The notes under the pieces are model-generated. The model was not told the origin of the DNA and ran no database searches. It worked only from the letters and a program-made list of their open reading frames with translations. Source: Patescibacteria group bacterium (GTDB taxonomy: Bacteria; Patescibacteriota; Minisyncoccia; Minisyncoccales; JAHCRE01). From it: a stretch of 52,535 bases of DNA. Position numbers and translations under genes: made by a program. The stretch is taken from contig JAHCRE010000019.1 in assembly GCA_020148145.1 (NCBI GenBank), positions 1-52,535 on the forward strand, written 5' to 3'. Shown here in pieces: positions 16,859-47,126 of the stretch. How positions within the stretch are numbered: the first letter of the stretch is position 1; each line of letters begins with the position of its first letter.

Positions 16859-17410
16859 ATGGATTTAAAAAAAGAAAAAGAATTAATTAAGAAGGCAAAA
16901 AGAGATCCTGAAGTTTTTGGAAGGCTTTATGATGAACATTACCCAAAAATTTTTGGTTATATTCTAAAAAGAGTGGCTAATCTTGAGATTGCTCAGGATA
17001 TTACTTCAGAGACTTTTTTTAAGGCCTTAAAAAATCTTTGGAGATTTCGCTGGCGAAATATTTCTTTATCCTCCTGGCTTTATCGTATTGCCTCAAACGA
17101 AATAGCAAATTTCTTTAGAAAAAATAAAAATAGAGTAATTCCTCTAGAGAAAACTTCAGAGCCAATTTCTACTCATAATCCTTTAATAGAAATTATCGAA
17201 GCTCAAGAAAAGTTAAAAAGGCATAAAGATTTTTTGGCTTTACAGGAAAAAATCTCTCAACTTCCTCTTAAATATCAAGAGGTGATTTGTCTAAAATTCT
17301 TTGAGAAAAAGAAAATTAAAGAAATTGCTGAAATCTTAGGAAGAAAAGAAGGGACAATAAAATCTTTACTTCATCGAGGATTAAAAAAATTAAGAGAGCT
17401 TTGCCACTAA
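16859..17410 (+). CDS. ECF-type RNA polymerase sigma factor (sigma-70 family, regions 2 and 4)
   Basis: FGRLYDEHYPKIFGYILKRV..AQDITSETFFKAL (region 2) and IAEILGRKEGTIKSLLHRGLKKLR (region 4 HTH). Confidence 0.85.
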   Translation: MDLKKEKELIKKAKRDPEVFGRLYDEHYPKIFGYILKRVANLEIAQDITSETFFKALKNLWRFRWRNISLSSWLYRIASNEIANFFRKNKNRVIPLEKTSEPISTHNPLIEIIEAQEKLKRHKDFLALQEKISQLPLKYQEVICLKFFEKKKIKEIAEILGRKEGTIKSLLHRGLKKLRELCH

Positions 17411-45681: not shown

Positions 45682-46554
45682 TTATAACTTCTGACATTTT
45701 GGGCAAAAGTGAGCTGATCTGCCAGCTAATTTTACCCTTTTTATTTTTTTACCACAACGAAAGCATTTCTCACCTTCCCGGCGATAAACTTTTCTTTCTT
45801 TTTCGTAATATCCTTTTTGACCTGAAATCGTTCTGAAATCAGAAATTGAAGTCCCTTTTAATTCAATAGCTCTTTTCGGAATTTTCCTCATAGCCTTATA
45901 GATTTTTTTAAGTTCTATATCATTCAAACTTTTTATTTCCCGAAAAGGATGAATTTTAGCTGTCCATAATATTTCATCAGAATAAATATTGCCTATGCCA
46001 ACAATAGTTTTTTGATCCATTAGAACCTGTTTAATCTTTCCCTTTTTTCCGCTTAGGGTTTCCTTAAATTTCTCCAAGTTAAAACTTCTCTCTAAGGGTT
46101 CAGGCCCTAAATTTTTTAGATTCTCTGAGTTTTTTAATTCTTTAGTATCCCATAATTCAACCTTGGCAAATTTTCTTAGATCAGAAAGGGCTAGCATCTG
46201 GCTATTGTCAAAAGTAAATAACAAATGAATGTAGGTATTAATTTTTTCTGAAAGGGGTCCGGGCGGAGGAAGCCATTTCCCGTGTTTAAACTTCCATTTC
46301 CCCAAAAGTAAATGACCAGTTAGTTTTTGATGAATTAATAAGCTTTTTCCGTCAGATAAATCAAAAATGATATTTTTACCTCTTCGCCAGGCTTTTTGAA
46401 TTTTTTTACCTTTAATTTCTCTTTTAAAATCCTTAAAATTTTTAGGTTTTTTAACTTGTTTTTCGAAGTCTGTCCATATGTATTCGATCTTTCGACCGAG
46501 TATTTTTTTCTGTAAATCTCTCACCGTAATTTCTACTTCTGGTAATTCTGGCAT
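45682..46554 (-). CDS. mutM: Formamidopyrimidine-DNA glycosylase (Fpg/MutM)
   Basis: MPELPEVE catalytic N-terminus (Pro2 is the nucleophile, so the ATG at 46554 is the start and not the TTG at 46566). H2TH region. C-terminal zinc finger CFRCGKKI..HFCPKCQ. Confidence 0.9.
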   Translation of the reverse strand: MPELPEVEITVRDLQKKILGRKIEYIWTDFEKQVKKPKNFKDFKREIKGKKIQKAWRRGKNIIFDLSDGKSLLIHQKLTGHLLLGKWKFKHGKWLPPPGPLSEKINTYIHLLFTFDNSQMLALSDLRKFAKVELWDTKELKNSENLKNLGPEPLERSFNLEKFKETLSGKKGKIKQVLMDQKTIVGIGNIYSDEILWTAKIHPFREIKSLNDIELKKIYKAMRKIPKRAIELKGTSISDFRTISGQKGYYEKERKVYRREGEKCFRCGKKIKRVKLAGRSAHFCPKCQKL

Positions 46555-46559
46555 ATACA

Positions 46560-46664
46560 TCAACAAACCCCGCCCTCTAAGCTCAGTGAGCTACATATAG
46601 CACAGAGGGCGGGGTTCTTTCTTAAATCTCTAACTATCGTCTCTACTTCGGGAAGCTCAGGCAT
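46560..46664 (-). pseudogene. Relic 5' end of a second fpg copy (16 codons) fused to a GC hairpin
   Basis: The minus-strand ATG at 46664 reads MPELPEVETIVRDLRK, then hairpin-encoded NPALCAICSSLSLEGGVC, then a stop. The TGA overlaps the ATGTATATG preceding the real fpg start. Confidence 0.6.
46566..46616. repeat. Perfect 13-bp GC-rich inverted repeat
   Basis: AACCCCGCCCTCT (46566-46578) pairs with AGAGGGCGGGGTT (46604-46616). There is an inner AGCTC/GAGCT hairpin. Confidence 0.85.
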
Positions 46665-46672
46665 AATTATGT

Positions 46673-46755
46673 GGACACCTTTTTAAAAAGGTGTCCCCGC
46701 CAAAAAATATAAGGTATCGGAAAACTCGGAATCTTGTAACCCGTAGTTTTTCGAC
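46673..46755 (-). promoter_or_regulatory. Structured intergenic element, copy B (see 16396-16482)
   Basis: On the minus strand: hairpin (46716-46725 with 46746-55), the identical linker ACCTTATATTTTTTGGCGG, then the 24-nt perfect palindrome GGACACCTTTTTAAAAAGGTGTCC (46673-46696). It ends 8 nt before the relic fpg ATG. Confidence 0.6.
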
Positions 46756-46757
46756 TT

Positions 46758-47126
46758 TTATTTGAGGGCGTTTTTTATCTTATCAATAATTTCTCCTGGG
46801 GTGAAGTGGGCCTTAATTAAATAATCCACTGCCCCCAGTTTTAGCCCTCTTTCGATATCATCTTTTTGACCAAGATTAGAGAGAATAATTACCGGAATTT
46901 GGACTAGGGTTGGCTCTTCTTTCATCCGGGAGAGAACCTCAAAACCATCTATTCCTGGTAAGATAAGGTCAAGCAAAATTAGATCTGGTTTCTCGGCTTT
47001 AATCTTTTTTATTCCTTCCTCTCCATCAACTGCTTCAAAAGTCTTATAGCCTTCTTTTACGAGTTTTTGAGCAATTAACTCTCTCAAAAACTTATCATCC
47101 TCAATAATGAGAATATTTTTTGGCAT
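46758..47126 (-). CDS. Single-domain response regulator (CheY-like receiver)
   Basis: ILIIEDD, phospho-acceptor context LILLDLILPGIDG, IPVIILSN, K in LIKAHF. Confidence 0.9.
   Translation of the reverse strand: MPKNILIIEDDKFLRELIAQKLVKEGYKTFEAVDGEEGIKKIKAEKPDLILLDLILPGIDGFEVLSRMKEEPTLVQIPVIILSNLGQKDDIERGLKLGAVDYLIKAHFTPGEIIDKIKNALK

Follow-up and report, generated by a model that had tools for sequence, protein, structure and literature searches.

The locus analyzed here poses a simple question: why do two starts of one DNA repair gene stand in a row, with a very stable hairpin between them? It lies in a window of 52,535 nucleotides (the whole stretch of DNA that was analyzed; G+C ~32%), contig JAHCRE010000019.1 of a Patescibacteria/candidate phyla radiation (CPR) type genome of 809 kb in 26 contigs (assembly GCA_020148145.1; here G000). 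On the minus strand, an intact fpg/mutM gene is preceded by a diverged second copy of its first 16 codons, which we call the relic, and a 51-nt hairpin element (HP) separates the two. We propose that the region is probably a gene-start replacement patch, made by recombination around a selfish hairpin. The same layout recurs in other lineages and HP descends from a nuclease cassette; these two results, and the separateness of HP from the other GC-rich elements of the window, go beyond what could be seen from the window alone.

A first-pass annotation of the window had described a minus-strand ATG at 46664 that opens an Fpg-type N-terminus, followed by an open reading frame (ORF) running through a perfect 13-bp inverted repeat to a TGA that overlaps the sequence before the real fpg. 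The coordinates bear this out: the relic reads MPELPEVETIVRDLRK, in agreement with the consensus N-terminus of the family, and the whole ORF (46664..46560) translates to MPELPEVETIVRDLRKNPALCAICSSLSLEGGVC, composed of MPELPEVETIVRDLRK and NPALCAICSSLSLEGGVC. Its TGA shares an A with the ATG (46560-46558) of ATGTATATG. The earlier count of 33 identities among 48 positions between relic and live start is exact, and the 15 differences lie mostly at third codon positions, with 2, 3 and 10 of them at the first, second and third positions and 13 of 16 residues shared. HP has two arms, AACCCCGCCCTCT (46616-46604) and AGAGGGCGGGGTT (46578-46566), which are perfectly complementary over 13+13 bp and enclose a loop of 25 nt. 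It folds on its own at -32.4 kcal/mol; for the 231-nt leader, the folding energy is -76.1 kcal/mol (z = -5.2 relative to shuffled sequences). Although the length of HP is a multiple of three, the frame stops two codons past it and the live protein begins anew, with ATG-CCA at 46554 and the sequence MPELPEVEITVRDLQKK. The live product is a complete Fpg/MutM protein: Pro adjoins the initiator Met, PF01149, PF06831 and PF06827 are all present, and full-length matches were found in 35 of 41 relatives.

The live gene is itself a mosaic. We compared it by sliding windows and a maximum chi-square test with two references, the metagenomic lineage M3 and the relative G003, and found a breakpoint after nt 82 (codon 28; p<=0.0005). 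To the left of this point, 23 of 24 informative sites are M3-like rather than G003-like, against 75 of 210 (75:135) to the right. Identity to M3 and L191 is 85-87% over codons 1-25 and 67% from codon 26 to the end, whereas identity to G003, L202 and L204 is 59-64% and 73-76% over the same two segments. Judged from these sequence comparisons, codons 1 to ~27 of the live fpg are foreign and come from another, M3/L191-like Fpg clade. The regulator gene was uninformative as a left-hand recombination marker, with 68-78% identity to all clades. A second mosaic was detected in L200, where the breakpoint lies at nt 77 (p<=0.0005) and the sequence beyond it is 96-100% identical to unpatched sisters. 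The replacement start passes into the body of the resident gene close to the conserved DxW(S/T)DF codons.

The counterpart of this exchange is visible in the relics. The relic of L200 has a GTG start, VPDLPEVETTVKDLNK and TVKDLNK, and is thus a native start of the G003 type, now with an E2D change at a catalytic residue; in this lineage, the relic is the resident start that was left behind. Together with the mosaic live gene, it supports the suggestion of the first-pass annotation that two fpg alleles recombined here and left a scar, whose junction is marked by the hairpin. Other relics are damaged (P5S, R12G and K16N in L193; L4F and D13N in L199), the relic of G026 is barely recognizable, and the end of the upstream ORF differs among lineages. 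Since relics are damaged and lineage-specific, the coding-like pattern of differences is best understood as independent descent from functional native starts and not as the mark of a leader peptide under selection. That the relic is under purifying selection was also considered, as 7 of the 8 changes between G000 and G001 fall at third positions, and was dropped given the unpatched sisters and the lineage-specific, decayed relics. A programmed frameshift or bypass from the relic into the gene was also rejected, because the frame offset varies by lineage (110, 109 and 108 nt).

Patched and unpatched alleles coexist among relatives. The comparison with related genomes proposed at first pass finds an unpatched fpg directly after the regulator gene in G002, G003, L202 and L204, with the widespread native KKVLGRTFID, which is the ancestral form, and a hairpin in its coding sequence, and G000 and L200 group with these four in the Fpg tree. 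The series of relic, HP, AT-rich spacer and full fpg recurs in G001 (same family, another genus), in M3 and in L200/P0009, and the spacers TGTTGATAT (L200), TATTGATGT (M3) and TGTTATTTAT (G001) are homologous to that of G000, TGTTGATGTAT. L201/P0013 carries the same HP and new start behind a different upstream gene. In L191-L195 (near M3) and L196-L199 (near G001), the layout is the same and the slot holds CCGAGCACATAA..TTATGTGCTCGG, which represents a second dispersed family with a long GIY-YIG form of its own. Three Fpg clades contain the patch, in six or more lineages altogether and at the same codon, with the left junction AAGAA/CC; the metagenomes were scanned for a single strict junction pattern, and the count is therefore too low for lineages patched at other junctions. 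The patched lineages in hand when the Fpg tree was made (G000, M3 and G001) fall into three clades. M3 and L191 are identical at 46 of 48 positions of the relic and at 836 of 897 positions of the gene, and their hairpin interiors are swapped between a shared AACC and GGTT. Occupied alleles show co-conversion of donor flank beside unpatched sister alleles, as seen in homing. Because identical layouts come from independent assemblies (the GTDB genome G001 from another genus, four JGI metagenome contigs of M3, and further JGI/ENA/Logan contigs), the assembly artefact that would have undone the first-pass proposal is excluded.

The position of the patch within fpg coincides with that of a coding hairpin. 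Codons 17-25 of unpatched fpg genes across the order form a strong in-frame hairpin of two types (AAAGGTCCTnnnnAGGACCTTT, also written AAAGGTCCTTGGAAGGACCTTT or GGTCCTnnnnAGGACC, and CCTCGGTCGAAAGATCGAGG), made of GC-rich codons in AT-rich genomes. In most unpatched relatives, this coding hairpin folds at -9.5 to -22.4 kcal/mol, and compensatory variants occur (L003-L026, L202, L204). The patch begins exactly at its 5' foot, from codon 17 onward. All eight patched alleles have a weak coding hairpin of -1.2 to -8.6 kcal/mol, a difference with p = 0.0002 by a Mann-Whitney test that was not corrected for phylogeny. The weak hairpin of G000 (Table 1) is the degenerate counterpart of the unpatched one.

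HP belongs to a dispersed mobile family, of which it is the single copy in G000. The ends CCCCGCCCTCT...AGAGGGCGGGG are identical throughout, and loops vary from 17 to 45 nt. Of 401 genomes sampled from the order, 28 carry the family (24 of 246 genera; 1-5 copies per genome), and more than 120 loci were found in public contigs, mostly from Parcubacteria/Paceibacteria-type metagenome-assembled genomes. Only one viral contig has the pattern, and phage carriage was rejected on this ground. The first-pass annotation had asked whether the hairpin was a further member of the GC element family of the window; no sequence relation was found, and the other elements differ from it (e.g. CCGCCGCCCCGAGAG). 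HP copies occupy the tips of variable 16S rRNA helices, RNase P RNA genes and tRNA flanks, and very often fill the whole stop-to-start gap in ribosomal-protein operons. Empty sites are found in G000, where, for example, the nusG-rplK gap measures 3 nt at the place where G001 holds the element. At L082:256-360, one copy is nested within the loop of another; this shows directly that the element inserts and that it favors hairpin loops. Taken with the helix-tip copies and the fpg coding hairpin, the nested copy suggests a preference for pre-existing hairpins. Among 135 distinct copies, in which 2-4-nt repeats were not systematically examined, the only direct repeats are the diverged gene starts that flank the fpg copies; the start duplication is hence peculiar to fpg and does not represent a target-site duplication left by the element.

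Several further features of the family were recorded. The 16S rRNA helix-tip copies are those of L038, L041, L052 and L053, and the RNase P RNA copies (L050, L087, L122, L129 and L148) lie beside the conserved core GGAAAGTCCGAAC. Most copies and long forms sit within a composite that fills the stop-to-start gap (L035, L037, L051, L055, L183, L184, L210 and others). The left flank of this composite, TGAGCGnAGCGAAAA, provides the TGA of the upstream gene, and its right flank is a small covarying hairpin (TGC-loop-GCA), sometimes with a 9-bp locus-specific clamp, whose final A also begins the downstream ATG. No known RNA family accounts for the region or for the hairpins: Rfam searches of the region at E<=10 and of eight HP loci at the gathering score gave only chance matches or tRNAs. 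Hammerhead or other ribozyme motifs and the GTAG tag of repetitive extragenic palindromic (REP) sequences did not fit the common flanks of HP on inspection.

The origin of HP is revealed by longer members of the family. Long forms of 242-251 bp, with exactly the 11-nt inverted ends CCCCGCCCTCT and AGAGGGCGGGG, are present in 14 of the 401 genomes, one of them at C7:8856-9101 of G001; a fifteenth match was left out because it consists of two short HP copies in an RNase P RNA gene. The reading frame opens with an ATG 8-9 nt in from the left end and closes with a TAG within the right end, and the encoded protein of 71-76 aa has a GIY-YIG domain (PF01541, E = 5e-12; score 46 bits, cut-off 22.6). 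The structures closest to this protein are UPF0213 (1zg2, 1ywl) and SLX1, and its sequence shares 45% identity with that of one of two small GIY-YIG cassette proteins of G000. The 25-nt loop of HP is the fusion of the two inner ends of the long form (ATGCnnTATGTA... and ...GCTT). Since HP and the long form share their ends and the loop is made of the joined inner ends, the 51-nt HP is a gene-less miniature of a ~250-bp GIY-YIG cassette, comparable to a miniature inverted-repeat transposable element (MITE). The second hairpin family, which fills the fpg slot of L191-L199 and is also written GAGCACATAA..TTATGTGCTC, is present in 37 of 301 genomes and has its own long GIY-YIG form. G000 has no long form and only the solo HP, which suggests that HP arrived with the patch and did not transpose within G000. 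Few nuclease-bearing units with transposon-like ends are as small as these cassettes of ~250 bp, which are candidate site-specific tools.

The two GIY-YIG cassettes of G000 lie at gene starts and have other terminal repeats (C11:~17085-17390 and C7:~169200-169560): one has 21-nt terminal inverted repeats, CCCCGTAGAGGAATTTCGAAT, with TATG on both flanks, and the other has the ends CCCCGTTAGAAACC. Seven long forms from different genomes (L213-L216, L218, L221 and L222) share one site, a possible hot spot just upstream of a gene beginning with MFIGEY (mraZ-like) and downstream of the DnaA-box-like TGTGGATAA.

Stranded gene starts are not confined to fpg. A protein-level scan of G000 for start duplicates found an exact 39-nt duplicate of the rpsO start (C25:12053-12092, 12276 onward) with a 184-nt GC-rich element in between, and a diverged 22-codon relic of uvrA (C12:32110-32175, 32198 onward). 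The uvrA relic is followed by the motif TTCGCTTCGCTCA, which also occurs in the common right flank of HP copies. A third stranded start lies on C7 (229155 and 229438), before a live gene.

How might such a patch have arisen and spread? A hairpin cassette would have struck the fpg coding hairpin, and the gene would have survived only through an accompanying duplicate of its 5' end, gained for example by one-sided homologous plus illegitimate recombination. The patch could later have spread into unpatched alleles by gene conversion, in which codons 1-16 of the recipient would pair with the donor relic, the gene body would pair past codon 27, and the intervening DNA would be copied. By analogy with homing, a GIY-YIG break or nick at the hairpin may stimulate this conversion, as in the intronless homing of phage seg genes (PMC2330249, PMC2988022), and may be akin to the single-strand cuts of Ssn at hairpin repeats (PMC11893778); alternatively, ordinary transformation may suffice for the spread. 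Within this patch-by-recombination account, we regard the nuclease-driven and the passive variants as about equally likely. We infer that the relic ORF arose as a by-product and gradually decays.

A more tentative extension, drawn by analogy, is that HP, spacer and spare start might constitute a self-compensating homing module. If this is true, a GIY-YIG nuclease of ~73 aa would act in trans and cut a conserved hairpin at the beginning of a gene that is essential or useful; with a patched allele as template, repair would then bring in the hairpin together with the replacement start, and the stranded old start would serve as the left homology arm. Coding regions could thereby be invaded free of cost, with fpg, rpsO and uvrA of G000, and others, as recurrent landing sites. 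This would be an undescribed route by which protein-less mini-elements spread in streamlined genomes.

Several observations weigh against a nuclease-driven patch of this kind or against the details of its history. A nuclease ORF was found neither within nor adjoining any fpg patch seen, which makes nuclease-driven homing only an analogy. The relic of L200 is of the native type to within 5 nt of the junction, and a break-induced conversion would normally leave more co-conversion there. Two left junctions occur, one after codon 16 plus AA and one after codon 14, so a single origin followed by spread is not the whole story. The relic of G000 is 77% identical to the native start of G003 and 83% identical to other relics, values that do not assign it to the resident lineage. 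It is also fully intact, which leaves room for selection in G000.

The alternative that survives best is a passive scar. In this scenario, which we consider rather unlikely, an intergenic terminator hairpin of a donor and its fpg start were joined to the resident gene when transforming DNA underwent homology-facilitated illegitimate recombination. This would have happened once or a few times, with ordinary homologous recombination passing the product on afterwards; the nuclease ancestry of HP would be irrelevant to its arrival. Potential donors do exist in G007/L012, G033/L004 and G245/L047, where a hairpin and then TTTGTT..TATA precede a normal fpg start, and microhomology of (G)AA is shared by fpg codons 16-17 and the usual left flank of HP, CGAAAA. 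The lack of a nuclease ORF in the patches also agrees with such a passive event. It does not readily explain why identical junctions recur in lineages of three Fpg clades, why the hairpin swap is restricted to the hairpin interior, or why two distinct nuclease-derived hairpins occupy one slot. The recurrence of the junction, the swap and the two hairpins suggest site targeting over chance; the spread of one old allele would still be compatible with them.

The first-pass annotation had itself named a less likely alternative, a regulatory upstream ORF coupled to fpg. In its broader form, the upstream ORF and the hairpin would be a maintained regulatory unit that originated by duplication and controls fpg expression, either as a leader peptide with a terminator or attenuator or as a translational-coupling ORF. 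The intact relic ORFs of G000, G001, M3 and L191, which differ almost only at third codon positions, would fit such a unit, as would the stop located 3-5 nt ahead of the real ATG in G000, M3 and L200 and the very stable stem followed by a T-rich tail. A leader peptide or coupling ORF conserved in length and end point was not what we found, as the ends vary and the relics decay: in L193, L196 and L199 the hairpin itself contains the end of the ORF, in G001 and L191 the ORF reaches into the real one, and relics are altered at invariant Fpg residues or decayed in L193, L199, L200 and G026. The unit is furthermore missing from most relatives and matches no Rfam family, and the third-position differences are explained by the independent derivation from native starts described above. 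We therefore regard regulation as improbable. Finally, a tandem duplication of the fpg start within the lineage with later insertion of an unrelated hairpin, or an assembly artefact, is least probable: slippage could duplicate a unit of ~110 nt made up of start, hairpin and spacer, but the mosaic test contradicts such an origin, as the live start resembles another clade much more closely than its own (85-87% against 59-64%), the two starts are as diverged as copies from different genera, and the layout is repeated in independent assemblies.

Table 1. Features of the fpg locus in G000, by position in the window
Feature	Position	Strand	Basis or remark
Response-regulator gene (122 aa)	46758..47126	-	ORF; PF00072 neighbor preceding fpg in most relatives, conserved in the order
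Spacer between regulator gene and relic, 93 nt, two hairpins	46665..46757	-	
Relic, 16 codons MPELPEVETIVRDLRK, displaced fpg 5' end	46617..46664	-	Matches family consensus N-terminus
34-codon ORF, relic plus hairpin read-through	46560..46664	-	ORF list; stop TGA 46562-46560
Hairpin element (HP)	46566..46616	.	Family-invariant ends CCCCGCCCTCT (46614-46604) and AGAGGGCGGGG (46578-46568)
Spacer TGTTGATGTAT	46555..46565	-	Relic ORF stop and in-frame ATG two codons ahead of the true start
Replacement 5' end of fpg, M3/L191-like (nt 1-82; codons 1 to ~27)	46473..46554	-	Informative-site test and sliding windows
Weak coding hairpin TCGGTC-GAAA-GATCGA, codons 19-24	46484..46499	-	-7.3 kcal/mol
Intact fpg/mutM, 290 aa, N-terminal PELPEVE, C-terminal zinc finger	45682..46554	-	Pfam domains

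HP may have acquired a secondary role in its present position. The spacer TGTTGATGTAT and the preceding TT form a T-rich tail behind HP, so that the stem of -32.4 kcal/mol is followed by TTTGTTG. A scan with promoter and terminator consensus patterns found nothing on the relevant strand; the 25-nt loop of HP is beyond the reach of its terminator pattern. On sequence grounds, HP with its T-rich tail is probably a putative insulator of fpg from the upstream regulator operon.

The neighborhood of the patch has peculiarities of its own. The 93-nt spacer between regulator gene and relic, with a palindrome and a second hairpin, is peculiar to G000; the distance from regulator stop to relic is only 2-15 nt in G001, L191 and L200. 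The perfect 24-nt palindrome GGACACCTTTTTAAAAAGGTGTCC in this spacer (46673-46696) occurs a single time in the G000 genome and across all fetched loci. In the M3 loci L059-L062, ~200 nt upstream of the relic, the gap between regulator and relic consists of tandem GC-rich units of ~55 nt (GGAAGCTCGGTAGGCGAAGAGAACTTCGTTCTCTTCTTCACCTTCGCTTCCTTC). The Fpg proteins of G003 (L003) and G001 (L015) contain in-frame Pro/Gly-rich insertions of 13 aa, TPTHPPPSRESGP and ARPPGLRPGEVGR, in the same loop (alignment columns 87-117). These are absent from G000 and are probably in-frame insertions of GC elements.

Our results bear on the question of how a 0.8-Mb genome can tolerate selfish DNA that lands in the catalytic start of a repair gene: a spare gene start comes along with the invader. 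They also have a practical side, since stranded look-alike starts will mislead start-codon, pseudogene and leader-peptide calls in Patescibacteria.

Elements that solve a similar problem at a gene end are known. Integrative elements and phages that insert at a gene end bring a substitute end and leave the displaced remnant behind. In both cases, the target gene stays intact thanks to the incoming end and the remnant lies on the other side of the insertion. Unlike these elements, the whole fpg patch measures ~145 nt, has neither an integrase nor a pair of att sites, and separates the remnant from the new end by ~60 nt. In its small size, HP resembles other palindromic repeats. Rickettsia palindromic elements (RPEs), Correia elements, and REP sequences and their mosaic arrays (bacterial interspersed mosaic elements, BIMEs) are small palindromic selfish repeats found within or between genes and co-transcribed with them. 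HP is likewise a small palindromic selfish repeat, as RPEs and MITEs are. RPEs are read in frame into the host protein, whereas here the frame ends and a new start follows; no target-site duplication was found among the 135 HP copies, and HP has no GTAG-tagged REP structure. Our full-text literature search found no description of hairpin miniatures of nuclease cassettes inside protein-coding gene starts that travel with a spare start.

Comparable systems with GIY-YIG nucleases come from phages and from CPR bacteria. The Seg proteins of T-even phages are free-standing GIY-YIG homing endonucleases that promote 'intronless homing' (PMC2330249, PMC2988022). Their transfer is non-reciprocal and includes flanking donor sequence, and the mosaic 5' end of fpg resembles such co-conversion. 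In contrast to the fpg patch, which is nuclease-less and lies inside a coding region where a duplicated gene start compensates for it, Seg proteins have a separate DNA-binding domain and their genes lie between genes. In a survey of CPR rRNA genes, GIY-YIG proteins were found in non-intron insertions, many insertions shorter than 200 bp were ORF-less, and the insertions sat on rRNA stem-loops, either at the top or at the base (Tsurumaki et al. 2024, PMC11270868). Several HP copies are insertions of exactly this kind. The survey did not tie the short insertions to nuclease cassettes and described neither copies in protein genes nor a duplication of gene starts (PMC11270868).

The closest parallel is Ssn, whose 'NTS-ssnA-NTS' architecture with hairpin repeats (NTS/SRM) has been called identical to that of insertion sequences (Chenal et al. 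2025, PMC11893778). Ssn cuts single strands at hairpin repeats, and Neisseria genes beside these repeats show raised sequence diversity and mosaicism (PMC11893778). Unlike the Ssn repeats, the ends described here form one hairpin upon loss of the ORF, copies number 1-14 per genome as opposed to hundreds, and the sites are rRNA helix tips, stop-to-start gaps and the interior of an fpg gene with a spare start. Kinship between the 73-aa protein and SsnA is judged from the shared Pfam domain only. Both systems share a small single-domain GIY-YIG gene flanked by hairpin-forming repeats, together with solo repeats; here the gene is found in relatives, and G000 holds the solo repeat only. The fpg locus thereby connects the short and GIY-YIG-bearing insertions of CPR rRNA genes with the Ssn-type architecture of nuclease and hairpin repeats, and both with the mosaicism of alleles adjacent to such repeats.

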